Shown here in pieces: positions 6,598 to 36,280 of a stretch of 64,000 nucleotides of DNA (position 1 is its first letter; every line of letters starts with the position of its first letter). The stretch is from Candidatus Gottesmanbacteria bacterium RIFCSPLOWO2_01_FULL_43_11b (GTDB lineage: Bacteria; Patescibacteriota; Microgenomatia; UBA10105; UBA927), in the NCBI GenBank assembly GCA_001780985.1, contig MFJV01000001.1, positions 37,466 through 101,465 of the forward strand. The letters are read 5' to 3'. The notes beneath the pieces were generated by a model that was not told the DNA's origin, did not search any database, and saw nothing but the letters and a program-made list of their open reading frames with translations. The translations under genes were made by a program, and so were the position numbers.

Positions 6598-6601
6598 CAA
6601 T

Positions 6602-9004: not shown

Positions 9005-9008
9005 CATA

Positions 9009-9026: not shown

Positions 9027-9076
9027 ACTCTCATTGACCTCTTGAAAAACTACGATGCCAGATGTATTGTGGGAGT

Positions 9077-10546: not shown

Positions 10547-10566
10547 TTTTGTGGTACACTCCACAC

Positions 10567-11418
10567 ATGAATTCTTCATTGCAAAAGCTTTCTGACAATA
10601 CTCTTGAGCTTACGATTACGATTCCCTGGGCGGATGTTGCCAAACAATACCAAACCTCCGTCGACGAGGCAGCTGCCAATACGGAACTTTCAGGATTCCG
10701 AAAAGGAAAAGCACCCCGCGATCTTGTTGAAAAGAATCTCGACAAAACAAAAGTCTACGAAGAAGTTCTTAAGGTACTTATCCCTAAAGTTTACAATGAA
10801 GCAGTTACTGAGAAAAAAATTAAACCTATTATTTCCCCGAAAGTTGAACTCAAAGAAGCTAATGAAAACAAAGACTGGGTTATCAGAATTCTCACCTGCG
10901 AAAAGCCGGATGTCACTCTTGGTGATTACAAAAAAGCTATTGGCGATCTTAAAGCAGGTATGAGCGCAAAAATTTGGAAGCCGGGAGATAAACAAGAAGA
11001 AAAACCTCAAACAACCAAACCTACACTCGACGAATTACTTATGGCGCTCTATGGAACGGTGACTATCAGTCTTCCGTCTCTTCTTATTGAGCACGAAGTA
11101 AATAGGCTTCTTTCTGAGCTCATTGACCAAACAAAAAAATTGGGTCTTTCTGTTGAGCAGTACCTTGCATCAACAAAACGCACAGCTGATTCTGTCCGAC
11201 ATGAGTATGAAGAACAGGCTAAGCGTACTCTAACGTTGGAATTTGCCCTTGAGACTATTGCAGACAAAGATGGGGTTCTCATTTCAGATGATGAGATCGA
11301 TACTGTTATTAACACGGCAAAAACAGATGAAGAAAAGAAGGCACTGGCAAATCAGCGATACTACCTGGCTTCGATTCTCCGTCGACAGAAAACACTTGAC
11401 ATGCTTGCGTCTTTATAA
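10567..11418 (+). CDS. tig: Trigger-factor-like chaperone (N-terminal ribosome-binding domain plus C-terminal arm; no PPIase domain evident)
   Basis: GFRKGKAPRDLVEKN matches the trigger factor GFRxGxxP ribosome-binding signature. At about 284 aa it is too short to include an FKBP domain. Confidence 0.55.
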   Translation: MNSSLQKLSDNTLELTITIPWADVAKQYQTSVDEAAANTELSGFRKGKAPRDLVEKNLDKTKVYEEVLKVLIPKVYNEAVTEKKIKPIISPKVELKEANENKDWVIRILTCEKPDVTLGDYKKAIGDLKAGMSAKIWKPGDKQEEKPQTTKPTLDELLMALYGTVTISLPSLLIEHEVNRLLSELIDQTKKLGLSVEQYLASTKRTADSVRHEYEEQAKRTLTLEFALETIADKDGVLISDDEIDTVINTAKTDEEKKALANQRYYLASILRRQKTLDMLASL

Positions 11419-11445
11419 TATAGGATAGTATAATTCCATATCGCC

Positions 11446-12039
11446 ATGACATCAAAGCAGCAAAATCAGAAAAAGTCCGTTACAAACTTCACAAACGACA
11501 ATATTCTTGAGTCGCTTCGGGGAGTAGGTGGCAACGTGGTCAAAACATCAGCTGACACAGCAACAAAAATTAGTAGCGACGTTCTCACGTCTCTTTTTGG
11601 TGCACTTCCTAAATCCGGTGAGCTTAAAGCTAATGAACCGATAGATATCAGAACTGAACAAGAGGCTGTACCTGTTGTTGCCCGAAGACCGGATATACTC
11701 TCCCCTCGAACAGATATTGCGGAATTAAACCTCAAACAGCAAATTGAGGCTGTTCGGATGGAACTCAAGGGTCTTGCTGAATCGCTCAAGAATCTCCATA
11801 CAGAGGTGGAGAAAACCATTAACGAAGTGCCTGTTGAACCGGGAATTTATCATGTCAACTTTTTTGCCCGACTCCGTTCATTTTTGAAAATTCTTCGGGA
11901 GCAAATAGATGACAGTCGCTCATGGATGGCAGTTTCTAACACCCGCAAAAAGAAAATGGGGTACTGGGGCATGTTCAAAAAACACGGAACAACTTTCGGT
12001 CTCTCCGGCGAACGCGCTATTGCCACGCAAGCTGGCTAA
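11446..12039 (+). CDS. Hypothetical protein
   Basis: 197-aa ORF, no recognised motif. TATAAT close to the ATG suggests a leaderless mRNA. Confidence 0.4.
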   Translation: MTSKQQNQKKSVTNFTNDNILESLRGVGGNVVKTSADTATKISSDVLTSLFGALPKSGELKANEPIDIRTEQEAVPVVARRPDILSPRTDIAELNLKQQIEAVRMELKGLAESLKNLHTEVEKTINEVPVEPGIYHVNFFARLRSFLKILREQIDDSRSWMAVSNTRKKKMGYWGMFKKHGTTFGLSGERAIATQAG

Positions 12040-12062
12040 TATATAATAAGGTAGTATCCTTA

Positions 12063-12134
12063 GGACGATTAGCTCAGTGGTAGAGCGCTGCATTCACATT
12101 GCAGATGTCGCAGGTTCAAATCCTGCATCGTCCA
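12063..12134 (+). tRNA. tRNA-Val(CAC)
   Basis: Acceptor GGACGAT/ATCGTCC, D-arm GCTC-AGTGGTA-GAGC, anticodon loop TTCACAT, T-arm GCAGG-TTCAAAT-CCTGC. Confidence 0.8.
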
Positions 12135-12191
12135 CAAGATCCACCTCTTGACCCCCAATAATTAGTAAGTTATCTTACAATTTCCCTGCAC

Positions 12192-12249: not shown

Positions 12250-15200
12250 ATGAAATTTTTCCACAAAAGCATTTCATTAATAACTGGCCTTCTCCTGGTA
12301 CTTCAATCATTAGTGCCGGCCCTTAGCATCGCTCCAAATTACGTTTTCGCACAAGATGCAGAAGAACAAGTTCAGGAGCAGGTTGAGCCAACGGCAGCGA
12401 TCGAACCATCTCCCGAACCCACGTTTGAACCAACTCCTACTGAAGAAGTTTTGCCTACTCCTACTGAAGAAGTAAGTCCGACACCGGAAACATCAGAACC
12501 TCCTCATGAAACAAGCCCCCCTGAGCCTGTCGAAGGGGACATTCTTGACGGTGTATCTTCTACTATAATGCCAACACCGCAAGTCAGTTCAGCTACGACG
12601 GAAGAAGGACAAGTTAATGCAATTCTTTTACATGAAGTTGAAGCAAATAGCCTTGATTTAGATTCAGTCGATCCTAAAAGTGCAACACTCTCAACAGATA
12701 AAGCTGATTATGCTCCCACAGACACAGTTGTTATCACAGGCACAAATTTTGATCCAAACACAAACTACACATTATCGATTACATCTGGTGACGAACCGGC
12801 ATATTCATTCCAGACGGCTATAACTACAGATGGTGAAGGAAGCTTTGTCTACGCCCACCAATTGGATGGTACGTATAGGCCAAACTATCAGGTAACAGTC
12901 ACCGCAGGGGAATCTACTGTGGCATCAACCACGTTTACTGATAGCCCTCCTTCCGGCTGTTTCAATGATTCAGCAGGTGCAAATGATGAACCAGGGCAAA
13001 AAGATTTATCAAAAGCGTGTGTAGACTATACAGGGCTTCCAACCTCAATTGACGTTGATTGGAATTGGGATGAAATTGCCTGGTCTGGTGCAAACACCGG
13101 TGATGCATGTAGTCTTTTTGATACGGATAACGATGGATTTGCAAATTATTCGCTGTGTGTTCGGGTTTCAGGTGATCCCGCAACATACCAAAATCATGTA
13201 CTCTTCTCATGTACCGATACAAAAGCAGATCGCTGTAGCGGTTCAGCAGGCATCGCAAATACGAGTTCCTGCACTGCTTCAGTCCAGTCTACAGATCCGT
13301 TTTTAACAGGTGATGAGTATCCTGATGACACAGGTGCAAGTTGTACAATAAATATGGCTGATGTCGGTGGAGCCACAGCAAGTCTTATTGATGTCTGTTC
13401 CTATCCATCTCAACAGCCCAATTCCGATCCATCAGACTGTATTTTTGCTTCAACTGCAAGTCAAACCGGACTTTTGGAGGTTCGAAAAGCATTAAGTCCA
13501 ACCACTGATTCCGGACTATTTAATCTTTCGATTAACAGCATTACATATGCTTTTGATGCTGGCCACAATGGTACTACTGGAGAAAAAGTCGTCGATACGG
13601 GCAATCACACCTTTGGTGAAACCCAAGGCACAGGTACGATTCTCAGCGATTACACAACAACAGTCCAATGTTTAAACGCTGCCGGTGCACAGGTTACAAC
13701 GACTGGAACTAACCCTTGGACTGTTAATATTGCCAATAACGCAGATATTGTTTGTACGATTACCAATACGCTCAACCAGGGCACACTCATCGTTGAAAAA
13801 GTGGTGGTTAATGACAATGGTGGCACACTCCTGGCTAATAACTTTTCTTTCCAAGTTGATGGCGGTACCGCTCAACCATTTGAAGCCGACGGCCACAATG
13901 AGATTACCGTAAGCCCTGGAACATATGATGTCACTGAACCGGCTGTGTCAGGCTATAGCACCACATATGATAACTGTACAGATGTCGTTGTTCCAAACGG
14001 TGGATCTGCTACTTGTATTATTACCAACAACGACCAGCAAGCGTATATCATTGTCGACAAGACAGTAGTTAACGACAACGGTGGATTAGCGGTTGCCAAC
14101 GACTTCCTTTTAACCGTTGATGGTAATCCAGTTTCAGACGGAGCGACCTTCGCAGTTAACCCAGGCGCTCACTCAGTCGGTGAAACGCCTCTTCCTGGCT
14201 ACACGGCCGGGGCTTGGGGTGGAGACTGTGACGTGAATGCAGGTGTCACTGTTAATCTTGGAGAAACAAAGACATGTACTATCACCAACGACGATCAGGC
14301 GGGAATGCTCATAGTCAAAAAGATTGTCACCAACGATAACGGTGGAACTTTGGAAACTGACGACTTTACTTTTGAAGTAAATGGCGGAGGCGCACAGGCA
14401 TTTGAAGCAGATGGCCAAAATGATCTTACGGTAGATGCAGGATCATATACCATAACAGAACCTACGGTTACAGGATATGAAACCTCGTATGACAATTGTA
14501 CGAGAGTTGCTGTCACAAACGGCGGATCTGCAACCTGTACGATCACAAATGACGATATTCAGCCACTTTTGACTGTTACGAAGATTGTCACCAACGATAA
14601 CGGTGGAAACGCGGTTATCTCCGATTTCCCGTTGTTTGTAAATGCAACACAGGTAACTAGCGGTGTACAAAACGGATTTAATGCAGGAAGTTACGTCGTA
14701 AGCGAAACGAGTCTAACTGGCTATACCGGAAACGTTAGCGGCAATTGTGCTGGAAACGGTTCTGTTACACTCGCAATTGGTGACGTAAAAGAATGTACGA
14801 TAACCAATGACGATGTTGCTCCTACGATTACTTTGATTAAATTAGTTAAAAACGATAATGGGGGAACGGCAGACGTTGGAGACTTTATACTCTCACTTGG
14901 CAACGGCAACGTCACGAGTGGTGTTCAAAATACTGTTAATGCAAACACAGCCTATGAAATTGATGAGGCCGGTCCTCTGGGATATGAATTTGTGTCTATT
15001 GCCGGCGACCCTGAATGTCCTTTGGTGCTCGCGGGGAACGTCACTGCAGACGAAGGAAAAAACATTACGTGTACAATCACCAATACCGACCAACCGGCAA
15101 CACTTACACTCATAAAGAACTTACCCAATGATAACGGAGGTACAGCGGGTGATGTCGCCTTCAACGTCTACATTAATACCGTCGCCTCAACATGGGGTAG

Positions 15201-17772
15201 CCACATTCTTGATGCAGGATCATACACAATAAGTGAAGACACGCTTTCCGGCTACACCGCGGGAATTTGGAGCGGCGACTGTGACGAAAACGGCAATGTA
15301 ACACTGCTTCCGGGCGATCAAAAAACGTGTGAAATTACCAATGATGATGAAGCCTCAACCTTGATAGTTAAAAAGATTGTAGTTGGTGGGTCAGCCAGTG
15401 CCAATGACTTCACATTTCAAGTGAATGGTGGAGAACCCAATCCGTTTGAAGCAGACGGTCAAAATGATCTGACACTCGATGCCGGAACGTATACGGTCAC
15501 AGAACCGGAAGTAACCGGTTATTCCGTCTCTTACGATAACTGTACCGAAGTTGTTATTCCAAATGGGGGCACGGAAACATGTACGATTACCAATACCCGT
15601 GATACAGGCGGCCTCACAGTTCATAAGCTCGTCGATAGCGACGCTGACGGTGTATATGAAGGCGCTGATGCAGAAGCAACTGTACTCGGGTTTGATTGGG
15701 GATTTGATCCAAGTGACACCCCCAACGCAATGGGCGCATCACTTTCCTTAGATACTGACAGTTACAATGTCTTTGAAAGTGGCGTTACTGGATATCACTC
15801 GGTCGGTTGGTTCTATACAAATAGTGAGGGAAGCTGTGAAAATCCTGCTGGCAGAGAACCTCCTGCAGTTGTTGATGTAACAAAAGACACAACCACAAAT
15901 ATCACATTCTGTAACACCCGCGATCTTGGAACAATCACAGTTCTTAAAAATATTGACTGGGATGAAAGCGGTCAAATCGGTGATCATCCAAATGATGTAT
16001 TGGGAGATACCACATGGACTTGGGATATTGAAAGCGGGCAGCAAGATATTGCAACCGGAGAATCAAGAACTTTAGCAACTGGAAGCTACACGATAACTGA
16101 AGACGAACAAACGTATTATCAGCTCGTCGGTTGGGTCTGTGACAATGACACGAGTGGTGAGTCAAATAGCATTCCGGTTGACCTTACCCAAGACGGTCAA
16201 AACATTACGTGTACATTCACCAATACACCTGATAAGGGAACTGTGACGGTAAACAAAGACGTTGATTCAGACGGTGATGGTGTTGTTGATATTTTTGGAT
16301 CTAGCGACTGGATTTGGGAATTAGGCAGTCTCGACTACCCAACCGGTACTACAGTAGACGTCGTACCCGGAGACTACTCTCTCACGGAATTTCAGGAGAC
16401 TGATTACCATGTTACAGATCTTACCTGTGATGATATCTCTTTGGGAGCAGTTGAAAGTACCCAAGTAAGCGTTGAACCGGGACAAGATATTACGTGTACA
16501 TTCACAAATACCCGTGACACTGGCGGACTTACTGTACACAAAATGGTTGATGGAGGTGACGGTAACTTTGTCTCTGCTGATCCCGGTGCATTTACCTGGG
16601 GATTTGATTTTGGTAATACCCCCAATGCAATGGGATCAGGACTTACCCTTGTTACGGGAAGCTACAATGTTTATGAAAGTGAAGTTCCCGGATATCACTT
16701 GACTGGTTGGTTCTATACGAATGACGATGCAAGTTGTGAAGATACTGATGGTGGTGAGCCTCCTGCAGTTGTCGATGTAACAAATGGTGACACAACTGAA
16801 ATTACATTCTGTAACGTCCGCGACACCGGTGACCTTCGAGTCAATAAATTTGTCGATACAGATGGCGACGGTGACTATGACTCATTTAATCCGGAAGCAT
16901 TTAAGTGGGGTACGGAAAGTGCTGTTCTTGCCGCTACAGATATGGGATCCAGTCAAACGCTGATTACAGGAACCTACGATGTCTTTGAAAATGATGTTCT
17001 CGGATATCAATTTACCGGTTGGTACACTGGTGATCCTCGGGAAAATCAATTTAGCTGCGATAACCCTGAATTTACAACGCTGCCGACTAACCTTAATGTT
17101 ACGGGTGAAGGATTGGAGATTACCTTATGTAATAAGCTTATGAATCCGGTCTTAACTATTTCAAAGACAAATGATGCTGGTGGAGACAAAAATCCTGGTG
17201 ACAGTGTTGTCTTTACCATTACCGTTGAGGCAACACAAAGCGCAGCGTATAACGTATTTGTCACCGATCTTCCGGATGGTGGATTCACCTACCGCGCAGG
17301 AAGCTGGACTGCAACCAAAAACGGCATTCCGTTTGCGATCACTGAACCGGTCTATGCATCTCCAGGACTCTGGTCAATCGGGGATATGAGTATTGGTGAC
17401 GTAGTTGTTCTTACCTATATTGCTGATATTGCTTCGGATATTACTCCGGGGCTTTACAAAGATCTTGTCTGGGCATTTGGTTGTATATTTGATACCGATT
17501 GTGTGGTAGGAGACGGCAATGATGTTTTGGCTACGGCAATTGACCCGGGATTTGTATCAGAAAACTATGCAGGAACAGGCGTAAATATTGTCAAAGAACA
17601 GCAAAATGGTTCTTCAATTACCGTCGAACAAAAATCAGAAGTTTTGGGGGCATCAACTGAGCTTCCGGCAACCGGAGCAAACGCCAAATGGCTTCTTGTT
17701 GCAGTATTACTATTCTTATCAGGTGTCGGATTTGTCTCTGCCGGAAGATTAGTTCGGAGGTATTATGCGTAA
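12250..17772 (+). CDS. Giant (1840 aa) cell-surface protein: signal peptide, Pro/Glu-rich stalk, at least 12 tandem Ig-like repeats, C-terminal LPATG sortase-sorting signal
   Basis: N-terminal signal peptide. Repeated roughly 90-aa modules (IVKKIVTNDNGGT...TCTITNDD). The C-terminus LPATGANAKWLLVAVLLFLSGVGFVSAGRLVRRYY is an LPXTG motif plus hydrophobic segment plus basic tail. Confidence 0.75.
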   Translation: MKFFHKSISLITGLLLVLQSLVPALSIAPNYVFAQDAEEQVQEQVEPTAAIEPSPEPTFEPTPTEEVLPTPTEEVSPTPETSEPPHETSPPEPVEGDILDGVSSTIMPTPQVSSATTEEGQVNAILLHEVEANSLDLDSVDPKSATLSTDKADYAPTDTVVITGTNFDPNTNYTLSITSGDEPAYSFQTAITTDGEGSFVYAHQLDGTYRPNYQVTVTAGESTVASTTFTDSPPSGCFNDSAGANDEPGQKDLSKACVDYTGLPTSIDVDWNWDEIAWSGANTGDACSLFDTDNDGFANYSLCVRVSGDPATYQNHVLFSCTDTKADRCSGSAGIANTSSCTASVQSTDPFLTGDEYPDDTGASCTINMADVGGATASLIDVCSYPSQQPNSDPSDCIFASTASQTGLLEVRKALSPTTDSGLFNLSINSITYAFDAGHNGTTGEKVVDTGNHTFGETQGTGTILSDYTTTVQCLNAAGAQVTTTGTNPWTVNIANNADIVCTITNTLNQGTLIVEKVVVNDNGGTLLANNFSFQVDGGTAQPFEADGHNEITVSPGTYDVTEPAVSGYSTTYDNCTDVVVPNGGSATCIITNNDQQAYIIVDKTVVNDNGGLAVANDFLLTVDGNPVSDGATFAVNPGAHSVGETPLPGYTAGAWGGDCDVNAGVTVNLGETKTCTITNDDQAGMLIVKKIVTNDNGGTLETDDFTFEVNGGGAQAFEADGQNDLTVDAGSYTITEPTVTGYETSYDNCTRVAVTNGGSATCTITNDDIQPLLTVTKIVTNDNGGNAVISDFPLFVNATQVTSGVQNGFNAGSYVVSETSLTGYTGNVSGNCAGNGSVTLAIGDVKECTITNDDVAPTITLIKLVKNDNGGTADVGDFILSLGNGNVTSGVQNTVNANTAYEIDEAGPLGYEFVSIAGDPECPLVLAGNVTADEGKNITCTITNTDQPATLTLIKNLPNDNGGTAGDVAFNVYINTVASTWGSHILDAGSYTISEDTLSGYTAGIWSGDCDENGNVTLLPGDQKTCEITNDDEASTLIVKKIVVGGSASANDFTFQVNGGEPNPFEADGQNDLTLDAGTYTVTEPEVTGYSVSYDNCTEVVIPNGGTETCTITNTRDTGGLTVHKLVDSDADGVYEGADAEATVLGFDWGFDPSDTPNAMGASLSLDTDSYNVFESGVTGYHSVGWFYTNSEGSCENPAGREPPAVVDVTKDTTTNITFCNTRDLGTITVLKNIDWDESGQIGDHPNDVLGDTTWTWDIESGQQDIATGESRTLATGSYTITEDEQTYYQLVGWVCDNDTSGESNSIPVDLTQDGQNITCTFTNTPDKGTVTVNKDVDSDGDGVVDIFGSSDWIWELGSLDYPTGTTVDVVPGDYSLTEFQETDYHVTDLTCDDISLGAVESTQVSVEPGQDITCTFTNTRDTGGLTVHKMVDGGDGNFVSADPGAFTWGFDFGNTPNAMGSGLTLVTGSYNVYESEVPGYHLTGWFYTNDDASCEDTDGGEPPAVVDVTNGDTTEITFCNVRDTGDLRVNKFVDTDGDGDYDSFNPEAFKWGTESAVLAATDMGSSQTLITGTYDVFENDVLGYQFTGWYTGDPRENQFSCDNPEFTTLPTNLNVTGEGLEITLCNKLMNPVLTISKTNDAGGDKNPGDSVVFTITVEATQSAAYNVFVTDLPDGGFTYRAGSWTATKNGIPFAITEPVYASPGLWSIGDMSIGDVVVLTYIADIASDITPGLYKDLVWAFGCIFDTDCVVGDGNDVLATAIDPGFVSENYAGTGVNIVKEQQNGSSITVEQKSEVLGASTELPATGANAKWLLVAVLLFLSGVGFVSAGRLVRRYYA

Positions 17773-18703
17773 ACTTGTTACAGCTCTAACCATATTCATG
17801 TTTGCAGGCGCTGTTTATGCGGCAAACCTTGACGTGCGAATTGAACAGCCAAAGTCACCGACCAACCAAAATAGTTTTCCTGTGCATTTTGTTGCTCTTG
17901 ATATATTAGACCGTCCGGTTACTGTTAAATGTTTCAAAAAGGGTCCATCCGATGGTGGATTTGTCCAGTTTGGCAGCGACATAAATCTTGCCTCGGGAGG
18001 AAACAGCGGAAATTGTGACGTCAATAGCTCTATTCTTACAGGAAACGGGACGTATGAATTTAAAGTAGAAGCAACTGCAGGTAGCGACTCTGATTCAGAG
18101 ACCACCAGTGTTGTCTATAATACAGACGGCCCGGGTGATCCGCGTGACTATCAGAAAAACAAAACTAACAGTTGTGAATACACCATTCACTTTAAAACTG
18201 CAGATGATGCAGGTAAAACAGTAAAAGTCGAAGTATACCGTTCAGAAAACATGTCATTTAATACAGACAGCGGTACGCGCGTAGGAACAGTCGGTGCGGG
18301 CTCAAATGAAACGAAAGATTTTACAAACACCATTCCTGACTGCAACAAAACCTATTACTATGCTATTCGATCTTTCGATAGCACCGGAAATGGCTCTGGA
18401 GTCGTCGGGGATAGCGTGACAACAACAACTGTTATTAACCCAACACCGACTCCGGGCGGAACGGCATCTGCAATTGCGGTAAGTGGCGGATCAGTATTGG
18501 ATGAAACAGCTCCGGAAACTACACCTGAGTCAACACCGACACCCCAACCTTCATTGGAAGATGTGGAAGGTAGTGTTGAAGGAATTGCAACAGGAGATGC
18601 ATCGTCATCTAACAATCTCTATGGATGGCTCCTTGGCGGTGGTATACTGGGAGTAGGAATATTGCTCTATGCCATCGCAAAAAGCCGCAAACAAGCTCGC
18701 TAA
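17765..18703 (+). CDS. Secreted protein with a C-terminal membrane anchor; possible minor sortase substrate or fibre subunit
   Basis: Signal peptide, Ig-like content, C-terminal GWLLGGGILGVGILLYAIAKSRKQAR. Translationally coupled to the upstream giant gene. Confidence 0.45.
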   Translation: MRKLVTALTIFMFAGAVYAANLDVRIEQPKSPTNQNSFPVHFVALDILDRPVTVKCFKKGPSDGGFVQFGSDINLASGGNSGNCDVNSSILTGNGTYEFKVEATAGSDSDSETTSVVYNTDGPGDPRDYQKNKTNSCEYTIHFKTADDAGKTVKVEVYRSENMSFNTDSGTRVGTVGAGSNETKDFTNTIPDCNKTYYYAIRSFDSTGNGSGVVGDSVTTTTVINPTPTPGGTASAIAVSGGSVLDETAPETTPESTPTPQPSLEDVEGSVEGIATGDASSSNNLYGWLLGGGILGVGILLYAIAKSRKQAR

Positions 18704-19280
18704 ATCGTTTACAAGCCTCGGTATCCTTCTTATTCTCATATCAGCAGTTATTGCTATCCTGACGTTTCTTCCTGTTGCCAAAGAAGAAATCAGCTATGCC
18801 TTCCGTCCAAAAAATATAACTGCTGAGATTGTCCCTGTTGACACGGACTTCGGTATCGTTATTCCCAAATTAAATGCGAATAGTAAAGTGATAACAAACG
18901 TCGACCCGTTTGACAGTCGAATTTACCAAATCGCATTGACCCAAGGTGTTGCCCATGCGAGAGGGACCGGACTTCCCGGAGCTCCCGGTAATGTTTTTTT
19001 ATTCTCTCACTCCTCAGTCAATTTTTATGAAGCATCCCGCTACAATTCAGTATTTTACCTCTTAACGAAACTTGAACTTGATGATGAAATACAGATTTAT
19101 TATCAAGGAAATAAATACACCTATACGATAAGAAACAAATCTATTGTGTTGCCTACTGATGTCCAGTATCTCAAAGCATTAAATGCTGATAGAGAAACGG
19201 TGACTCTTATGACCTGCTGGCCGCCGGGGACAACGTTTAAGCGTCTTCTTGTCATTGCGGAGCGTAAAGTTGACGAATAG
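18669..19280 (+). CDS. Sortase (transpeptidase)
   Basis: N-terminal TM, catalytic His region NVFLFSHS, active-site TLMTCWP (TLxTC). Confidence 0.7.
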   Translation: MPSQKAANKLAKSFTSLGILLILISAVIAILTFLPVAKEEISYAFRPKNITAEIVPVDTDFGIVIPKLNANSKVITNVDPFDSRIYQIALTQGVAHARGTGLPGAPGNVFLFSHSSVNFYEASRYNSVFYLLTKLELDDEIQIYYQGNKYTYTIRNKSIVLPTDVQYLKALNADRETVTLMTCWPPGTTFKRLLVIAERKVDE

Positions 19281-19307: not shown

Positions 19308-19787
19308 GTGAATATTGTCGTTATCATCATTGCCTCAATAATTGTTATTGCCGGTGCCCTCGCACGTCCTTCTAAAATTGAAGAGCAAGAACCAGTCCTT
19401 GGCGAAACAGCTACAGTTGAAGAAACTCCGACGCCAACTCCACAGAAGGATGCGAACCTTCCAACTATCACCCCCACCCCAACCCTGCAGCCACCCGAGA
19501 AGGATGCGAACCTTCTATGGCAGTATCCAAACAGCAGTATTATTACAAAAAGCGAGACTGCACTTATACTTGAATCCAATGGCGATGTGGATGCAATAAC
19601 CGATTGGTACAAAGAAAAAATTAAAGCCATGGGGATGAACGCAAAATCATTTGTCGTTACAAAAACGAACGGAAATGTCCTTAATAAACTTGTGGGTGAC
19701 AACGGAAACATCGAAATTCGCGTCGAAATTTCAAAATCCGCGGGTGAAAGCACTGTTCGGATTGTTGTGACCTATCATACCTCTTGA
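19308..19787 (+). CDS. Small membrane-anchored protein carrying two in-frame REP-like insertions (KDANLP) in its Pro/Thr linker
   Basis: GTG start, N-terminal TM. The two element copies are translated as QKDANLPTI and EKDANLLWQ. Confidence 0.4.
   Translation: MNIVVIIIASIIVIAGALARPSKIEEQEPVLGETATVEETPTPTPQKDANLPTITPTPTLQPPEKDANLLWQYPNSSIITKSETALILESNGDVDAITDWYKEKIKAMGMNAKSFVVTKTNGNVLNKLVGDNGNIEIRVEISKSAGESTVRIVVTYHTS
19445..19462 (-). repeat. REP-like palindromic element, copy b (GGAAGGTTCGCATCCTTC, reverse orientation)
   Basis: C-variant of the repeat loop, lying inside the coding sequence. Confidence 0.7.
19499..19515 (-). repeat. REP-like palindromic element, copy c (reverse orientation, C-variant)
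   Basis: GAAGGATGCGAACCTTC, 37 bp from copy b, in the same ORF. Confidence 0.7.
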
Positions 19788-24453: not shown

Positions 24454-25038
24454 ATGAAATTTTTCTTATCTATTATTTCATTTCTTCTTGCCGGATATTT
24501 TTTTGCAACCGCAATACACGCGGATGAATTTATTATTGAAGGCAATGCAGATGGAAGTGAAAATTCCATAAACTTCGAGTCGTCTTCACAAACAAACGTC
24601 ACGCAATCTAACCAAATGGATGTAAATAACCAAGTTGATGCCGATGCCAACACAGGTGGGAACAACACTGATGGTGGTTCCGTAGAAACCGGCGATGCGT
24701 CGGTCTGGGTACAAATCAAAAATTTCTTTAACTGGAATCAAGCAGATGTTGACGACTGTTGCCCGGAAGGCGTTACGCCAACCCCAACAGTCTACGATCC
24801 CGGTAAACCCACACCAACACCAACCACAGCCCCTGGAGTTGGAGGACCAGGACCATCCAATGGAGATGGCGGAAATGGTGGGGGAGGAAACGGTGGAGGC
24901 GGTGGTGCCGGAGAAGTACTTGGACTTTCAGCTGCAGCGGGTGAACCGACGACAGAAATCCTCTTCTACACTTTGGGTGCGCTATGCCTAGCCCTCGGAG
25001 GCGCCATGTTGCGCCAACCAAAAAATCTTCTCTCATAA
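24454..25038 (+). CDS. Small secreted repeat-family protein (one module) with a PT/Gly linker and a C-terminal hydrophobic anchor; paralog 3
   Basis: Signal peptide. Module NADGSENSINFES...DADANTGGNNTDGGSVETGDAS...DDCC. C-terminal TM plus RQPKN. Confidence 0.5.
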   Translation: MKFFLSIISFLLAGYFFATAIHADEFIIEGNADGSENSINFESSSQTNVTQSNQMDVNNQVDADANTGGNNTDGGSVETGDASVWVQIKNFFNWNQADVDDCCPEGVTPTPTVYDPGKPTPTPTTAPGVGGPGPSNGDGGNGGGGNGGGGGAGEVLGLSAAAGEPTTEILFYTLGALCLALGGAMLRQPKNLLS

Positions 25039-25643
25039 TAGCTTGGATTTCTTCCCATCGTCGCACAGTTGGTTTATGGTTTCTCATGCTCGGATTCCTT
25101 TTTGTCACGTTTCCGACTGCCTACAAAACTCTCTACACAGGAACATTAACACCTCCACAGGCTTCTCTAGAAACATCATCTTCAACAACAAACATTTTTG
25201 ATTTTGGCCCGATTCGCATTGACCAAAAACTCTTAGGTTTAACTGTTCCTTCTCAACAACCTCTTCGCATTGTGATTCCTTCGCGAAAAATTGATCTCTC
25301 TGTTGTTGAAGCACCTGTTATCAACGGGTACTGGGAACTTTCTGAAACAACCGCTTCTCATGGCGTAGGATCGGCTAATCCGGGTGAAATCGGCAATACC
25401 GTCATCTTTGCTCATGCCAGAGAGGGTCTCTTTTTACCTATTCGGGACATTCAAGTGAGTGAGGTTATCTATGTACTCACCAAAGACCGCTGGTATCGCT
25501 ATACAGTGGCTCAGACACAGCTTGTAGATCCCAATCAGGTAGAAGTTATCGCTCCCACCCCAGACGAAACGCTCACTCTTTTCACCTGCTCCGGTTTCTT
25601 CGATACCAAGCGTTTGATTGTAATTGCGAAGCCACAACGATAG
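24984..25643 (+). CDS. Sortase (second copy)
   Basis: N-terminal TM, catalytic His VIFAHA, active-site TLFTCSG. Its stop TAG lies within a REP-like element. Confidence 0.6.
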   Translation: MPSPRRRHVAPTKKSSLIIAWISSHRRTVGLWFLMLGFLFVTFPTAYKTLYTGTLTPPQASLETSSSTTNIFDFGPIRIDQKLLGLTVPSQQPLRIVIPSRKIDLSVVEAPVINGYWELSETTASHGVGSANPGEIGNTVIFAHAREGLFLPIRDIQVSEVIYVLTKDRWYRYTVAQTQLVDPNQVEVIAPTPDETLTLFTCSGFFDTKRLIVIAKPQR

Positions 25644-25660
25644 AAGGTTCGCATACTTCC
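25643..25660 (+). repeat. REP-like palindromic element, copy d (GAAGGTTCGCATACTTCC)
   Basis: Exact copy, overlapping the sortase stop codon. Confidence 0.8.
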
Positions 25661-25663
25661 ATA

Positions 25664-25722
25664 AAAAAGCCCCACCTGGGCAGACCTGTCCGCCAACTGG
25701 CGGGCCATGATGGGGCTTTTTC
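25664..25722. terminator. Bidirectional intrinsic terminator between convergent genes
   Basis: AAAAAGCCCCA...(internally structured loop)...TGGGGCTTTTT, with symmetrical A/T runs on both sides. Confidence 0.6.
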
Positions 25723-25738
25723 TCTCCAAAATCGAGAA

Positions 25739-26338
25739 TTACTCAGTCAATGTATTCGTTGAACCTGTGACAGTTACACCTGTCGTGTCTGTTGCATTTC
25801 CGCTTGTATTCGTAACAACACTTCCTGTGTTGCCGTTAGCTCTATTGCGTCGAGAGCGAGCTCGAGACACCGCTAAAACCCCGACTAACTGTCCATTACT
25901 TTGTCCTCTCACCTTCGTGTTAACGAGTGGAGCTACTACCGTATTTGTTGAATCTTTTCCGTTGCCACTAATTTCGGTTGTCGGAGGGTCTCCGCATCCA
26001 CACGGACTACTCAACGTTGCGGTATTAGAGCTTCCAGTCACAACAACAGATGTTGTAGCGGTCGCATCACCACTCGTGTTAGTCACTACTGAGTTAGTGT
26101 TATTATTTGCTTGATTTCCTCCCGTTTTTGCCGAAGAGAACGCACCAATCAAAATTAATGACTCGTTTGATTGTCCAACAACATCGGTATTTGTTTCTGA
26201 TGCAACAATCGTGTTCGTTGATCCTGCGCCATTATCCATGATTTCAAGATCAGCAGCTAGAGCCACTGGAGAAACGATAGTTGCAACCAAACTTAATGAA
26301 GCAACTGTTGCACCAAATTTTACTAATTGTTTTTGCAT
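25739..26338 (-). CDS. Secreted repeat-family protein on the opposite strand (paralog 4)
   Basis: Strong SD AAAGGAGGTGAAAC. Signal peptide. ISGNGKDSTNTV...ANNNTNSVVTNTSGDAT modules, CGCG pair. Confidence 0.5.
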   Translation of the reverse strand: MQKQLVKFGATVASLSLVATIVSPVALAADLEIMDNGAGSTNTIVASETNTDVVGQSNESLILIGAFSSAKTGGNQANNNTNSVVTNTSGDATATTSVVVTGSSNTATLSSPCGCGDPPTTEISGNGKDSTNTVVAPLVNTKVRGQSNGQLVGVLAVSRARSRRNRANGNTGSVVTNTSGNATDTTGVTVTGSTNTLTE

Positions 26339-27102: not shown

Positions 27103-27675
27103 ATGTCAATAAGTTTTGAGGGGCAGCAAACTGATGAACGAATATTGGCTGAAATTCGCTCATACGCGTTGAGTAAATACATTGCCATTGTAAAAATAAT
27201 CTTGCTGTCCGTTTTCTTCTATTTTGTATTGCGTTCTATAGGTAACGTCGTTCCCCAATTTGCCTCTCTTCTCACTATTTTCGGTTCACTCTTTTCTCTC
27301 GCTCTTTTTGTTATCGGCACATGGTGGAATAATCTTGTGTATACCCGTGACCGCACGTATATTACAGATCGGCGCATTATCCGCTTTGATCAGGTTTCTC
27401 CGTTTTTTAGAACCAAACGCGAACTATTCTGGAATGAGGCATTAAAAGCAAAAGGCTATGCACCCAATCTCTTCTTTCGCATGATGAAAGTGGGAACGCT
27501 TGAGGTAGATCCTATCATGGGGGAGAGAGAAAACGTTATAGTTAAGGATGTGTATTATTTTGAGGATTTAGCAAATTATATTGATAAAATTCTCTATACG
27601 TTTAAAAACAAACCTGTTGAAATTGCTGCAATACAACCATTTGTTGCCAAACCCCGGGGACAAAGAGACACATAG
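27103..27675 (+). CDS. Hypothetical membrane protein (2 TM)
   Basis: ORF with two hydrophobic helices. Its stop TAG is part of a REP-like element. Confidence 0.4.
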   Translation: MSISFEGQQTDERILAEIRSYALSKYIAIVKIILLSVFFYFVLRSIGNVVPQFASLLTIFGSLFSLALFVIGTWWNNLVYTRDRTYITDRRIIRFDQVSPFFRTKRELFWNEALKAKGYAPNLFFRMMKVGTLEVDPIMGERENVIVKDVYYFEDLANYIDKILYTFKNKPVEIAAIQPFVAKPRGQRDT

Positions 27676-27691
27676 AAGGTTCGCATACTTC
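27675..27691 (+). repeat. REP-like palindromic element, copy e, between convergent stop codons
   Basis: CATAGAAGGTTCGCATACTTCTA overlaps the stop of 27103-27675 (+) and the stop of the RAYT gene (-). Confidence 0.8.
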
Positions 27692-28386
27692 TATTCTTCG
27701 CCTCTATCGATAATATAGTTTTCTATCACCTTCGCTTCTTGTTCTGAAATAACCGCATCCACAAACTCTTTATATCGATTCGGCAACCCCTTAAAATACG
27801 AAAGTACCAAATCCGTACTCGTTACTTGTTGGAAGGTTCGCATACTTCCAATCGCATACACACGGTAATCGCTGAATAACCAATGTTCAGGTTTCTGTAC
27901 TAACCCAGCAACTACCGGATTCAAATGAATGTACCGAACTACTTGTAAAAGATCTGGGTCGCTAGGGATATTTTTGATTTTGAATCTTCCCTGAAAAATA
28001 GCTCCTTCACGATTATACTTTTTATTAAACTTGTGGCTGTACGTAATACACAGCCTTCGCACCAACTCCGGTATTGGTTGAAAGGAGACGGGATTTGTTT
28101 CTGCTTTTTGTTGAATCAAAAGATGAAAATGATTAGGCATAAGACAATAAGCGAGTACGGAAAGTAAAGACTTAAATAATCCGTTGCTTTTTGGATCGGC
28201 TTTATACGTGACAGGAACTGGAAGGTTCGCATCCTTCTTCTCCGGAAAACCAGCAACAAGATATCGAAGAATATCTTCAAAACTATGGTAATCCTCTGAA
28301 TCTAAAAACGTTGGAAGCTTCGCGACCCCTCTGTTGTATATATGATAGACTCCGTGTTCGAAGTATTCTGGTCGAAAATGGGGCAT
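27691..28386 (-). CDS. IS200-like HUH tyrosine transposase of the REP-associated (RAYT/TnpA-REP) type
   Basis: YHIYNRG, HUH motif MPNHFHLL, and the C-terminal catalytic-Tyr region RYIHLNPVVAGLV...HWLFSDY resemble E. coli RayT/YafM. Flanked by REP-like copies at both ends and containing two more (GSMRTF, KDANLP) in-frame. Start taken at the internal ATG (MPHFRP); the TTG-extended ORF would absorb copy h. Confidence 0.65.
   Translation of the reverse strand: MPHFRPEYFEHGVYHIYNRGVAKLPTFLDSEDYHSFEDILRYLVAGFPEKKDANLPVPVTYKADPKSNGLFKSLLSVLAYCLMPNHFHLLIQQKAETNPVSFQPIPELVRRLCITYSHKFNKKYNREGAIFQGRFKIKNIPSDPDLLQVVRYIHLNPVVAGLVQKPEHWLFSDYRVYAIGSMRTFQQVTSTDLVLSYFKGLPNRYKEFVDAVISEQEAKVIENYIIDRGEE
27831..27849 (+). 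repeat. REP-like palindromic element, copy f (inside the RAYT gene)
   Basis: GGAAGGTTCGCATACTTCC, translated on the minus strand as GSMRTF. Confidence 0.8.
28220..28237 (+). repeat. REP-like palindromic element, copy g (inside the RAYT gene, C-variant)
   Basis: GGAAGGTTCGCATCCTTC, translated as KDANLP. Confidence 0.75.
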
Positions 28387-28390
28387 TAAT

Positions 28391-28409
28391 GGAAGGTTCG
28401 CATACTTCC
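28391..28409 (+). repeat. REP-like palindromic element, copy h (just upstream of the RAYT start)
   Basis: GGAAGGTTCGCATACTTCC, 5 nt upstream of the ATG. Confidence 0.8.
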
Positions 28410-28422
28410 ATCGTGTAGTCAA

Positions 28423-29217
28423 CTACTCAGCTTTGATGATAAAAGTTAAAAGCTTCATTCCGGCACCAAAGTCCCGTTCGTAGAGGGCGATGCGCGCTGT
28501 CTCCCGAATCTTCTTTCCCCAATCTGACGGATTTTCAAAAATTCCCTCAAGAAATGCCTGTGACCCTCTCGGTTGCCAGAAAGAAAATTTGCTTGTCTGA
28601 TTCACTGTCGTAAATGAGTCAAGGTGTGCGTAAATCGTCTCAAGTTGTTCGTAGTCATGAGCATTGGGATGTTCGTTACTTGGCGGGCCGTCGGGATCAC
28701 TTGTGTAGTCCATGCATGTCCCTAAATTTGGATTATCAAAAGCTTCATCCTGATGGTCAAGCCCCAGCGTGTGGCCAACCTCCTGACACATCACGAGGTT
28801 TTTCCACGCCGGCGTATTGTATGTTGAAGTATTAAAGTAGCTATCGTTTACTTTCGCTAAACCTTTCGTAATATGGTCTCCGCTCACCCAAATCTGAGCC
28901 AGTCCCAACCAGCCATTTCGACCATAGCGATAATTACATGCTTCGACACGTCCGCTGGTTGCGCGACATCGACGCGCATTGGTTCCCCCGGCAACAATCG
29001 TAGTATCAAGCACGGACGAAACGCTCCAGTCGCTTGAGGTCGTCACCAGGTACGGATCCCAGCTTGAGGAAAGATTGTCTCCGAGTTTAAGAGTAAATGG
29101 ATTGGCGGTTCGCGCCCAGTGGTAGTTTCCCCACGAGTGATTCGCTTTTGCCGTTCCGGTATATGAAAAGAAGAAAAAACCTAAAAGAAGCAAAACAAAC
29201 AGTTTAACAAGTTTCAT
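28423..29217 (-). CDS. Secreted zinc metalloprotease of the metzincin type (HExxHxxGxxH)
   Basis: Signal peptide. CQEVGHTLGLDHQ zinc-binding motif. Snapalysin/matrixin-like size. Confidence 0.65.
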   Translation of the reverse strand: MKLVKLFVLLLLGFFFFSYTGTAKANHSWGNYHWARTANPFTLKLGDNLSSSWDPYLVTTSSDWSVSSVLDTTIVAGGTNARRCRATSGRVEACNYRYGRNGWLGLAQIWVSGDHITKGLAKVNDSYFNTSTYNTPAWKNLVMCQEVGHTLGLDHQDEAFDNPNLGTCMDYTSDPDGPPSNEHPNAHDYEQLETIYAHLDSFTTVNQTSKFSFWQPRGSQAFLEGIFENPSDWGKKIRETARIALYERDFGAGMKLLTFIIKAE

Positions 29218-29251
29218 ACATTTCGTATCCTACCTAACAAGTCTAAGTAAG

Positions 29252-29269
29252 CTTGACAATAATGTCAAG
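29252..29269. promoter_or_regulatory. Perfect palindrome CTTGACAATAATGTCAAG; candidate operator carrying a TTGACA -35 box in each direction
   Basis: 7-4-7 inverted repeat 35 bp upstream of the metalloprotease start. On the minus strand it reads TTGACA-17-TAGACT. Confidence 0.4.
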
Positions 29270-29371
29270 TGATGGTTTTCTTAAATATGGGGAGCTCGTG
29301 AAACGGGCTGAGAGTTCCGTCAGTAGACGGATGACCCTTTGAACCTGTTCGGATAATGCCGGCGGAGGGAC

Positions 29372-30064
29372 ATGAACGTAGAACGCGTATTTCTCAAACG
29401 AATCGATAAAGCAAATCTCGTGTGTCAACAACACCAAATTTGTAACCACGACCACAAGCATCACAAACGCGTTCTTGAAAACGCACTTGTTATAAACAGC
29501 ATCCTACCAAAACCTTTTAACGAACGGGATATACATACACTTGTTCTCGGCCATGACATCGGCTATAGTTGCCAAGGAATTGTCTGGGTAGGGAAAAATG
29601 CTATTAATCATGCTCAACGAGGTAATGAAGTTCTCAAACGCGCTGCGACAATATTTCTGAGAGGCCAAGAAAAAATCGCCGTAGTCGCGCTTATTAATAC
29701 ACTCCCCACAAACACAAAAGAAGCCATAGCACGTCTTGAGGCAACCGATCCTCTTCCTGCCGCAATTAAACTGGCTGATTGTCTAGACTACTTTCACACT
29801 GATCGTGTCAAGCATGTCCCTCAACCCTATCCTGACGAACATAACTACTACTTTTTAGCTAAGAGTGTTACGTCATACACAATCCATAACGAAGCACCCA
29901 AAACACTCGCATGGACCATTGATCTCAAGCCGGGCGTCGACAAAACCTTGTGGGAGTCGACCGCACAAGCAAATTTTCAACAAATTTTTACTCTTGCAGA
30001 ACTCTTTGCACAACGACTGCATTTTACATTTCGACTCGCATTGACATTGAATGGGGAGGCATGA
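29372..30064 (+). CDS. Hypothetical protein, possibly an HD-domain phosphohydrolase
   Basis: H..H...LVLGHDIGY...D pattern compatible with an HD domain. Weak. Confidence 0.3.
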   Translation: MNVERVFLKRIDKANLVCQQHQICNHDHKHHKRVLENALVINSILPKPFNERDIHTLVLGHDIGYSCQGIVWVGKNAINHAQRGNEVLKRAATIFLRGQEKIAVVALINTLPTNTKEAIARLEATDPLPAAIKLADCLDYFHTDRVKHVPQPYPDEHNYYFLAKSVTSYTIHNEAPKTLAWTIDLKPGVDKTLWESTAQANFQQIFTLAELFAQRLHFTFRLALTLNGEA

Positions 30065-34381: not shown

Positions 34382-36280
34382 ATGAATATTTTGGTTCCTG
34401 ATTCATGGCTTCGTGAATACCTTAAAACGAAAGCTACTCCTTCTCAAATAAAAGAGTATCTGTCGCTTTGCGGTCCTTCTGTTGAAAGGATTACTAAAGA
34501 CAGGGTCTATGAAATTGAAATCACGTCAAATAGACCGGATAGCATGTCAATTTTTGGTGTTGCGAGAGAGGCAGCCGCGATATTACCCCGCTTCGGAATT
34601 CCGGCCAAATTAGCCCTACAAGGAGTCTCCTTGAAGGGCAAGGAGAGTCACCAACGGAAACTTAAACTTACGGTAAAGACTGATTCAAAACTCAATCCCC
34701 GCTGGACATCGGTTGTGTTCGATGATGTCAATGTCGGGGTATCTCCGAAATGGCTTTCAGAGTGGTTGGAACTCTCAGGTATCAGGTCAATAAATAATGT
34801 CATTGATGTAACAAACTTTCTCATGCGCGCGTTCGGCCAGCCGGCTCATGTCTTTGACTATGATACAATCTCCGGTCACAGTATGAAACTTCGTGCTTCC
34901 AAAAAAAGAGAAAAGATTACAACGCTTGATGGAAAAACACATACGTTACCCGGCGACGACATTGTGATTGAAGATGGGTCGGGAAAACTAATTGATCTAT
35001 GCGGAATTATGGGGGGAAAGAATTCTTCTGTAACGGATAAAACTACCCGCGTCATCCTGTTTTTACAAACCTATGATCCGTCCCACATTCGGAAAACATC
35101 AATGATGGTATCACACCGTACTGAAGCTGCAAGTCTTTTTGAAAAAGGACTTGATACTGAATCTATTATGCCGGTCTTTCTCAAAGGCGTTTCCATGATG
35201 CAGGAGTTGACTGGTGGAAAAATTGCAAGCGCAGTTACTGATATGTATCCGTCACCGTACAAATCTAACATCGTTTCAGTAAACCTATCAAAAATAGTTT
35301 CATACATCGGTGATATAACAGAGGCAGAAATCAAAAAAATTCTTGAACCGTTAGGATTTACGGTAAAAAAGGATTTGCATGTTGTTGTACCTAGTTTTCG
35401 TCGTGATGTCACTCTCGATGTCGATATTATTGAAGAAATTGCCAGAATTTACGGTTATCACAACATTACATCAACTCTTCCTAAAGGAGAACTCCCAATG
35501 ACAATACAAAATCCGATGTTATTTTGGGAGGAAGAAACAAAAATTCGATTACGTGACTGGGGATACACTGAACTTTTAACATATTCCATGATTTCAGAAG
35601 AACAAATGGATACTTTTGTATTAGATAAATCTAAAGCATATAAAATATCAAATCCTTTATCCAATGAATGGCTCTATATGCGACCGAGTCTTCTTCCTTC
35701 AGTACTTTCCGCGGTCAAACAAAATTTGAATATCCGTGAAGACTTAAAGTTATTTGAATTATCGTTTGTTTATGAGCTCAGACAAAACGATTTACCTCTC
35801 GAAAAACCAATGCTCATCGTTGTCTGGACAGGGAAAAAATATCCGGAAGCAAAAGGATTAGCGGAGGCGCTTTTCGATGTATTTGGTATTCCGTTTCCGG
35901 AAGCCATCAAGGAGTATGGATCAATTGAAATACTAGCTGGTGAAATAACGGTATTATATTTGGATTTTTCCCGGCTTGTTGCAAATGCTAAGCCAATAAA
36001 AACCTACAAACCCATTCCCAAATATCCGCCCATTGTTGAAGACCTTGCATTTGTTGTACCGGAACAATTCGAAGTCGGTCCGCTTATTGCGCTACTCAAA
36101 AAAGCTCACCCACTCGTTTTTCATGTCAGCCTCCTCGACGTCCATGGAAGTATGCGAACCTTCCATATTGAATATCAGAATTCGAAGAAGAATTTAACAA
36201 ACGAATATGTTACCCCAATCCGTGAAAAACTGATTCGTCTGGCCGAAGAAAAATTTGGTGTAACAATTAAAAACCCCTAG
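34382..36280 (+). CDS. pheT: Phenylalanyl-tRNA synthetase beta subunit (compact, about 632 aa) with a 6-aa REP-derived insertion near the C-terminus
   Basis: Begins MNILVPDSWLREYL. B3/4 and B5 regions recognisable. GSMRTF at the C-terminal domain is encoded by REP-like copy i. Confidence 0.8.
   Translation: MNILVPDSWLREYLKTKATPSQIKEYLSLCGPSVERITKDRVYEIEITSNRPDSMSIFGVAREAAAILPRFGIPAKLALQGVSLKGKESHQRKLKLTVKTDSKLNPRWTSVVFDDVNVGVSPKWLSEWLELSGIRSINNVIDVTNFLMRAFGQPAHVFDYDTISGHSMKLRASKKREKITTLDGKTHTLPGDDIVIEDGSGKLIDLCGIMGGKNSSVTDKTTRVILFLQTYDPSHIRKTSMMVSHRTEAASLFEKGLDTESIMPVFLKGVSMMQELTGGKIASAVTDMYPSPYKSNIVSVNLSKIVSYIGDITEAEIKKILEPLGFTVKKDLHVVVPSFRRDVTLDVDIIEEIARIYGYHNITSTLPKGELPMTIQNPMLFWEEETKIRLRDWGYTELLTYSMISEEQMDTFVLDKSKAYKISNPLSNEWLYMRPSLLPSVLSAVKQNLNIREDLKLFELSFVYELRQNDLPLEKPMLIVVWTGKKYPEAKGLAEALFDVFGIPFPEAIKEYGSIEILAGEITVLYLDFSRLVANAKPIKTYKPIPKYPPIVEDLAFVVPEQFEVGPLIALLKKAHPLVFHVSLLDVHGSMRTFHIEYQNSKKNLTNEYVTPIREKLIRLAEEKFGVTIKNP
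36146..36164 (-). repeat. REP-like palindromic element, copy i (reverse orientation) inside pheT
   Basis: GGAAGTATGCGAACCTTCC; 18 nt in-frame, giving GSMRTF. Confidence 0.8.

Follow-up and report, generated by a model that had tools for sequence, protein, structure and literature searches.

Repetitive extragenic palindromic (REP) repeats and the REP-associated tyrosine transposases (RAYTs), as in E. coli TnpAREP/YafM and the Pseudomonas REPINs (REP doublets forming hairpins), are the described systems closest to the one considered here, a family of short hairpins and a RAYT-like gene for a domesticated, transposase-like enzyme in a 64 kb stretch of DNA (the window; 43% G+C) from a small groundwater bacterium of Candidatus Gottesmanbacteria, a lineage of the candidate phyla radiation (CPR). 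REP repeats are extragenic, and a REPIN is formed by two inverted REPs with a conserved spacer. In REPIN populations a cloud of mutated copies is expected. We know of no experimental demonstration of how RAYTs disseminate REP sequences. Published RAYT hallmarks are a single gene copy, vertical inheritance and flanking hairpins (10.1101/2022.05.22.493013; PMC3337134). Intragenic REPs, and REP termini that provide TAG stop codons, are on record (Di Nocera et al. 2013, PMC3733652); the intragenic GTAG/CGTC REPs are dimers or grouped repeats encoding 20–30 amino acids (aa), or clusters encoding 43–82 aa (PMC3733652). Evolution of REPs by gene conversion was proposed in 1988 (Higgins et al., as cited in PMC3733652) and is the nearest precedent for what is proposed below.

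Other systems share particular features with the window family. The TnpA enzymes of the IS200/IS605 family (IS608, ISDra2) have the HUH/Y1 fold and recognize hairpins in single-stranded DNA (ssDNA). In these multicopy elements the transposase is bounded by left and right ends that differ from each other, and the target for insertion is the 3′ side of a tetra- or pentanucleotide. In the window family, by contrast, the gene keeps its position and the hairpin alone is repeated. Rickettsia palindromic elements (RPEs) and the intragenic GTAG/CGTC REPs are, like the window hairpins, palindromic repeats read in-frame inside functional protein genes. Both are described as insertions that add residues, in contrast to the window family, where none are added in the conserved genes tested, and no dedicated transposase is known to be tied to RPEs. 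The uptake signal sequences (USS) of Haemophilus, the DNA uptake sequences (DUS) of Neisseria and cyanobacterial HIP1 are 8–12 nt long, have many one-off variants and are not known to be linked to an HUH nuclease gene. In coding DNA, USS and DUS occupy sites where the encoded peptide is tolerated, cause no length change and persist in orthologues. The window family has in common with USS, DUS and HIP1 the in-place coding motifs, the lack of length change and the orthologous conservation, but its core is 17 nt, all-or-none and tied to a RAYT.

With REP/RAYT systems the window family shares a single-copy, vertically inherited Y1/HUH enzyme, a cognate hairpin that is both flanking and dispersed, co-variation of the two, and TAG stops. 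It differs from them in several respects. The unit is a single hairpin of 17–23 nt and not an inverted pair; its 5′ tag is ATRG and not GTAG; most copies lie in or overlap genes; coding copies replace native codons without insertion or deletion (indel); the cloud of mutated copies is missing; up to three copies lie in-frame within the RAYT open reading frame (ORF); and the protein has ~230–260 aa, compared with 165 aa in the solved TnpAREP chain. The favoured explanation, with a probability of roughly 0.55, is a REP/RAYT-type system of Gottesmanbacteria whose hairpins are spread and kept identical by conversion-like overwriting.

The initial annotation of this DNA had proposed a REP/RAYT arrangement in which the repeat proliferates in-frame as RPEs do. 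That proposal holds in outline, with respect to the enzyme, the synteny, the flanking and dispersed hairpin and the co-variation, but not with respect to the mode of spread. Copies within genes, which had been considered unusual for REP/RAYT systems, are less so than was thought and are not new as such, because intragenic REPs and TAG-supplying termini are already described (PMC3733652). Literature searches found no description of a REP/RAYT system in the CPR, of a RAYT ORF whose conserved loop positions hold its own hairpin in-frame, of coding REP copies that overwrite instead of insert, or of a repeat population essentially without mutated members.

The DNA covered consists of the window and fragments of related genomes; loci L111–L128 and similarly numbered ones are stretches of related contigs. 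The element, RGAAGGTTCGCATMCTTCY, has nine copies in the window, where zero are expected by chance. They were located with the query GGAAGGTTCGCATMCTTCC, with up to two mismatches allowed, and no match was found in any of 100 dinucleotide-preserving shuffles of the window. Mismatches among the nine are confined to positions 1 (A/G) and 19 (C/T), and the 17 nt core, GAAGGTTCGCAT[AC]CTTC, is invariant in all of them. As ssDNA the element forms a hairpin with a folding energy between −5.6 and −7.8 kcal/mol (z-scores −4.8 to −5.7). A graded flank consensus, a-T-R...Y-A-t, derived from 38 copies, gives a hairpin a-T-R-GAAGGTTCGCATMCTTC-Y-A-t of ~17–23 nt. The 5′ foot before the core in these copies is ATAG or ATGG, not GTAG, and TAG is present in the A-variant. 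The copies and the RAYT-like gene are located as follows.

9008 to 9026, + strand: copy after a tRNA, starting 3 nt past the 3′ end of tRNA-Leu(TAG)
19444 to 19462, − strand: first linker copy, in the Pro/Thr-rich linker of a 159 aa membrane-anchored protein; reads QKDANLP
19498 to 19516, − strand: second copy in the same linker; reads EKDANLL, with NL over a family-conserved NL
25642 to 25660, + strand: copy at the end of a sortase gene, its first bases completing the sortase TAG stop
27674 to 27692, + strand: copy downstream of the RAYT gene, between the TAG stop of a 190 aa gene (27673 to 27675) and the RAYT TAG stop on the opposite strand (27691 to 27693)
27691 to 28386, − strand: RAYT-like Y1/HUH nuclease gene, 231 aa
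28123 to 28131, 27925 to 27936 and 28327 to 28347, − strand: RAYT motifs HFH (HUH), RYIH (catalytic Tyr) and N-terminal YHIYNRG, respectively
27831 to 27849, + strand: internal site 3 copy, in-frame G-S-M-R-T-F, RAYT residues 180–185, in a loop
28078 to 28095, − strand: internal site 2 remnant, NPVSFQ, RAYT residues 98–103; an 8-residue deletion took most of the copy
28220 to 28238, + strand: internal site 1 copy, in-frame K-D-A-N-L-P, RAYT residues 50–56, in a disordered surface loop
28391 to 28409, + strand: copy upstream of the RAYT gene, ending 4 nt before its ATG, at the place expected for the ribosome-binding site
36146 to 36164, − strand: copy in the FDX-ACB domain of PheT; GSMRTF (36146 to 36163), residues 589–594 of 632

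Five of the nine copies are inside ORFs, and four are on the RAYT gene, two flanking (28391, 27674) and two in-frame (28220, 27831). The density at the RAYT locus is four to five copies in 0.8 kb, compared with ~1 per 7 kb elsewhere in the window. Overall, hairpins are present on both strands, in intergenic DNA, at gene ends and within essential genes, and are read in five of the six reading frames and in both orientations relative to genes. By a hand tally, the strand reading GSMRTF/KYANL is the sense strand ~2:1, which is too weak a bias for use. The same copies are found in contigs L111–L115, independent assemblies of the same organism that are 99.9–100% identical to the window, and an assembly artefact is thereby excluded.

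Doublets 44–59 nt apart, inverted or direct, do occur (window 19444–19516, and L043, L065, L075, L130, L138, L140, L147 and L149), and most copies are singletons. The spacers of two doublets from one genome (L043, L075) look unrelated by eye. A REPIN doublet as the mobile unit was therefore ruled out.

The RAYT product passes the Pfam Y1_Tnp model PF01797 (29.1 bits, cut-off 23). Its sole NCBIfam match is REP_Tyr_transpos NF047646, at 64.6 bits (E = 8.7e-18), which is below the curated equivalog cut-off of 80 bits; therefore, the protein belongs to a distant branch and is not a canonical RAYT member. An AlphaFold model based on an alignment of 26 homologues reaches a mean pLDDT of 85, with values below 50 for residues 51–63. 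The closest fold in the PDB is that of E. coli TnpAREP with a REP hairpin (4er8_A, E = 3.9e-8, target-normalized TM-score 0.74), and ranks 2–25 of the search are IS200/IS605 transposases. In that alignment little or no variation is seen in the HUH motif, the RYIH Tyr motif or the N-terminal YH..NRG motif, and the catalytic residues are invariant. By homology to TnpAREP, binding and cleavage of the cognate hairpin are predicted; the cleavage positions would lie at the T-R and Y-A flanks. The gene is single copy within the window, and its product is identical to a protein from 'uncultured bacterium ACD_36C00073'. The initial annotation is thus borne out as to the nine copies (apart from a 1 nt offset for those beginning with A), the hairpin, the RAYT-like HUH/Y1 product with its two flanking and two in-frame copies, GSMRTF in both PheT and RAYT, and KDANL twice in the 159 aa protein and once in RAYT. 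The same is true of the TAG stops overlapping copies 25642 and 27674, the latter lying exactly between convergent stops.

The RAYT gene has a fixed genomic neighbourhood. The order penicillin-binding protein, PheT, PheS, L20, L35, IF3, ThrRS, ..., RAYT is common to the window, L116, L118 and L124, and the RAYTs of these three relatives are 61–67% identical to that of the window. In L128, which is among the closest relatives by PheT (67% identity), the syntenic site is without a RAYT, and its 13.6 kb contain no hairpin copy. Where the window has the RAYT and genes of 264 and 230 aa (27691–30064), L128 has a 57 aa ORF and a Trp-repressor-like gene (L128:3786–4750).

A five-hairpin layout at the RAYT gene is conserved in L116, L118, L120, L124 and L125, whose RAYTs are 44–67% identical. 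One copy precedes the ATG by 2–5 nt, as many as three are read in-frame within surface loops and one is past the stop; the orientations relative to the RAYT gene are, in order, −, −, +, −, −. The three in-gene sites map to loops of the RAYT model. As judged from these alignments, the presence of copies inside the gene is conserved throughout the RAYT clade. The exception among RAYTs of ~245 aa is L122, with flanking copies only, and a sister clade of ~215 aa (L126) is without these loops, the hairpin at its flanks being an unrelated one. A copy lies 2–5 nt before the ATG in the window as well as in the five relatives, and its presence in six lineages suggests autoregulation of RAYT.

Peptides encoded at the three sites in homologues are KDANLP, KDAILP or KYANLP (site 1), GRFAYF, GRIASF, GRMRSF or GSLRNF (site 2) and GSMRTF, GSMRSF or GSLRNF (site 3). 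In L116, L118, L120, L124 and L125, site 2 has a perfect copy of the local variant in the opposite orientation. The window RAYT has lost most of this site, which most closer homologues keep; one homologue (P0052) lacks the same segment. In L125 the site 2 copy translates as KVSHTL where L116 has GRFAYF. On our reading, this places it in a shifted register with respect to conserved downstream codons, which suggests re-installation and not simple descent.

The hairpin sequence itself varies with the RAYT lineage, and five variants pair with five lineages.

GGAAGGTTCGCATACTTCC: window and L116
GGAAGGATCGCATCCTTCC: L118 and L124
GGGAAGTTTCGTAAACTTCCC: L120
GTAAAGTATCGCATACTTTAC: L125
TGAAGGATCGCATCCTTGTAA: L122, flanks only

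The variants differ for the most part by compensatory changes in the stem, and each of them folds well. In every case with in-gene copies, the copies within the RAYT ORF match the dispersed variant of their own genome. At the level of sequence comparison, this co-variation demonstrates a tie between the hairpin family and its RAYT lineage.

The named PheT orthologues carry the labels Candidatus Gottesmanbacteria or Patescibacteria group. Four metagenome-assembled genomes (MAGs), CAYNWD01, CAYVAR01, CAYSOR01 and CAYNJY01 (loci L116, L001, L029, L043, L044, L042, L006 and others), are titled 'uncultured Gammaproteobacteria'. All four hold the 17-mer in multiple copies, and CAYNWD01 (L116) matches the window in gene order, in having a PheT orthologue and in its RAYT, which is 67% identical. 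The Gammaproteobacteria label is probably wrong. A contig scan with the 17-mer over 596 Gb also revealed multi-copy MAGs; ~70% of the matches listed are single chance matches, which a 17-mer is expected to give against 596 Gb.

How the coding copies arose can be read from orthologues. The initial annotation had held that each 18 nt copy adds six residues. In PheT, however, the codons GGA AGT ATG CGA ACC TTC align gap-free to ESSRTL in L116 and ENTRTL in L118, and six residues are present at the element columns in 119 of 120 homologues, with the consensus E-N-T-R-T-[F/L]. The zero length change at the element extends to all eight conserved genes compared: PheT and the seven given below, each as the element-bearing sequence followed by the reference.

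Glutamate dehydrogenase (GDH): MDDGSMRTFQGYR; solved GDHs, MDDGSVK[IV]FTG[YF]R
YggS: RKVRILLQVN; SPKLCLQVK, PLNVLIQIN
MurE: GSMRTFHGVPGR; SSLETFTGVEGR
M24 peptidase: VKKDANLLPGMVF; FRNDSPLPENVVF
MurT: KKVRILLSKNPAG; KEAMINLAKNPAG
YfhO-like membrane protein: WKDANLPWWNP; paralogue, WKMGQVPLWNP
MurC: RSMRTFYSLK; GEERMFFRLS

These gap-free alignments demonstrate replacement of equal-length native sequence by the coding copies, in so far as orthologues record it, and with no residues added in any of the eight genes the RPE-like mode of proliferation is not upheld. In GDH and MurE the residue past the element, natively T, has become Q or H (CAA, CAT). Therefore, the rewritten tract is ~21–23 nt, which agrees with the flank consensus from the 38 copies. 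PolX also carries a copy, in a variable loop where two residues are gained on balance relative to T. thermophilus PolX; the case is uninformative.

The sole PheT homologue gapped at the element columns, P0121 (606 aa), is 100% identical over 91% of the query. Its C-terminus is divergent (RPHSAHRRKPPR...), and the protein may stem from an assembly in which this gene is frameshifted or truncated.

The overwritten sites appear to have resembled the element beforehand. Native PheT sites of five relatives differ from the element at 6–10 of 19 positions, where by our own estimate ~14 differences are expected for unrelated sequence. The native PheT proto-site is CATGAAAACACGCGAACGGTTCAC, which also has an ENTRTF version. 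YfhO-like paralogues already carry the arms TGGAAG...TTCCA. This pre-existing likeness may reflect a similarity-dependent mechanism.

The mismatch spectrum of the core was taken over about 370 kb in all.

Window, 64 kb: 9 perfect, 0 one-off, 0 two-off, 1 three-off
Related-MAG loci, 153 kb: 30 perfect, 0 one-off, 0 two-off, 1 three-off
Metagenome loci, 152 kb: 37 perfect, 2 one-off, 0 two-off, 0 three-off

In total there are 76 perfect cores, two one-off and no two-off matches. The T7A form accounts for both one-off matches and is the master sequence of L118 and L124. Of the two three-off matches, that from the MAG loci resembles a tRNA T arm (GGTTCGATTCCC, GGTTCGA), and that from the window is probably the T arm of tRNA-Lys; from three mismatches upward, the window counts come close to those expected from the shuffles. 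Near-matches are thus essentially absent, and the copies must be homogenized, under very strong selection, or both. Neutral drift of selfish insertions and build-up by point mutation are rejected because many near-matches would be expected, and a gradual mutational origin was discarded on the same spectrum. In related genomes many copies fall within genes, among them MurE, MurC, MurT, GDH, YggS and PolX, and copies recur at the same MurE, MurC, PolX and YfhO-like sites across genomes; one copy that two genomes have as orthologues shows 100% conservation over ~26 nt, with flanks 78% identical. The pattern establishes, on the evidence of these comparisons, that the copies evolve in concert.

An alternative is that the element is a selected genomic signal, such as a USS/DUS-like uptake sequence of a naturally competent CPR cell or the site of a nucleoid or replication factor, which arises by point mutation plus bias, the RAYT being a mere binding protein. 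The lack of length change, sites that were already alike with a tolerated peptide, and the persistence of MurE, MurC, PolX and YfhO-like copies at orthologous positions are all as such a signal would have them. A balance of mutation and drive, however, predicts many near-matches where the spectrum has almost none, and the native PheT sites are 6–10 mismatches away. Moreover, the motif co-varies with, flanks and sits within the gene of a catalytically intact HUH nuclease. The genomic signal is accordingly unlikely, although it fares best among the rivals.

Several points weigh against overwriting and have to be set beside the evidence above. The likeness of target sites could be mere survivorship of tolerated amino acid changes and need not point to similarity-dependence. 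Conversion events and tract ends are deduced from orthologues whose proteins have diverged to 70% identity or less; among the PheT relatives listed, the closest is 70% identical and none lies between 70% and 100%, which yields no strain pair that differs by one copy. The MAG and metagenome loci of the census were picked for holding a perfect copy. The window RAYT is without site 2 and scores under the NCBIfam cut-off, and its present activity is unproven. Finally, the 3′ end of the sortase gene has ~38 extra nt, including the element, compared with the otherwise well-conserved L128 region. Insertion therefore seems also to occur, or else indels confound the comparison.

The extra sortase nucleotides, with AAGCC repeated at both junctions, speak for classical transposition, by which an 18 nt hairpin would insert in-frame and add six residues as an RPE does. 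The three copy-hosting RAYT loops, absent from the ~215 aa sister clade, and the intragenic REP insertions on record (PMC3733652) fit it as well. Nevertheless, no gap is found in any of the eight conserved genes, PheT alone having been compared with 119 orthologues, and the linker of the 159 aa protein, despite its two copies, is 32 aa long where its closest homologue has 31 aa. For the coding copies plain insertion is contradicted, and it may apply in non-coding DNA; as a general account it is improbable, more so than the genomic signal.

The 159 aa protein was also considered as a test of insertion versus replacement for its first copy, and was set aside as its linker is too variable. A terminator-like hairpin past the sortase (AAGCCCCACCTGGGCAG...GCCATGATGGGGCTTT, window 25661–25740) is conserved in L128:1880–1925, and the window version of this terminator-like hairpin has an extra 20 nt (ACCTGTCCGCCAACTGGCGG) in its loop.

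The weakest alternative is a role in RNA (T-arm mimic, mRNA-stabilizing hairpin or terminator) selected transcript by transcript, with the transposase link incidental: three of the nine copies are at gene or tRNA 3′ ends, two of them supplying TAG stops, one copy covers the RAYT ribosome-binding region, and GGTTCGCATCC resembles a T-arm (GGTTCGAATCC), tRNA T arms being the nearest non-copy matches, but the copies face either way relative to genes, are read in five of six frames, have no Rfam match, and present identical loops and an all-or-none conservation that such a role leaves unexplained, so that it is very improbable. In the sister variants GGATCGCATCC and AGTTTCGTAAACT the TTCG T-loop likeness is lost while the stem is kept by compensatory changes, and on this ground, together with the lack of an Rfam match, T-arm mimicry by GGTTCGCATCC was rejected. 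An RNA or terminator role may still apply to the copies at gene ends.

Returning to overwriting, a mechanism can be tentatively put forward, at somewhat less than even odds: a RAYT-type HUH nuclease drives overwriting of similar sequence genome-wide, including essential genes and its own ORF, in place of cut-and-paste or copy-and-paste insertion and with continual re-correction to one master. Such a process would be a natural, protein-guided form of short-patch gene conversion at work in a minimal genome. The system would have two components, a single vertically inherited HUH/Y1 nuclease gene and a population of identical ~17–23 nt hairpins. By analogy with E. coli TnpAREP, the RAYT would bind and nick hairpins extruded in ssDNA. 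The nicked or released hairpin strand may then serve as a short template or oligonucleotide and be incorporated at near-complementary sites, for example on the lagging-strand template at a replication fork. Incorporation would convert the site with its length unchanged, and only conversions tolerated by the protein would survive. Slightly mutated copies would be the best targets and would be rapidly corrected to the master, perhaps the basis of the concerted evolution.

Such a template route would entail no length change, a need for prior similarity, correction of mutated copies and co-variation of in-gene and dispersed hairpins. A local excess of copies at the RAYT locus would be expected if the enzyme prefers DNA near its own gene. 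The RAYT gene is the densest target, with copies at its ribosome-binding region, in up to three surface loops and at the stop codon.

This CPR lineage offers an unusually clean natural record that bears on REP spread, with a minimal spacer-free hairpin, perfectly homogeneous copies, codon-level changes in conserved proteins that are easily scored and an enzyme gene with five copies of its own site. If overwriting is correct, repeat families could colonize the coding DNA of streamlined genomes without indels, and the 1988 gene-conversion idea for REPs (Higgins et al.) would gain direct support. Genome-writing tools could also profit from interest in a compact protein able to write a defined 20-mer into similar sites. 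With respect to annotation, the recurrent GSMRTF, K[DY]ANLP, GRFAYF and KVRILL peptides of Gottesmanbacteria proteins are footprints of a DNA repeat and not protein motifs.

Several features of the surrounding DNA merit mention. The copy at 9008–9026 sits within a cluster of five tRNAs (4946–12135) and might affect tRNA 3′ processing or termination. The region 12250–19280 encodes an 1840 aa SpaA-type pilin-like protein, followed by a gene of 301–312 aa without a Pfam match and a sortase (18669–19280). A second sortase is at 24984–25643, and the whole is a Gram-positive-style pilus locus in a CPR genome. A thiamine pyrophosphate (TPP) riboswitch (Rfam RF00059, 61.7 bits) is found at 29278–29387 on the + strand, where it is immediately upstream of the 230 aa ORF at 29372–30064 and overlaps its start. 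This ORF has no Pfam family on record and could encode an uncharacterized thiamine-related transporter or enzyme.

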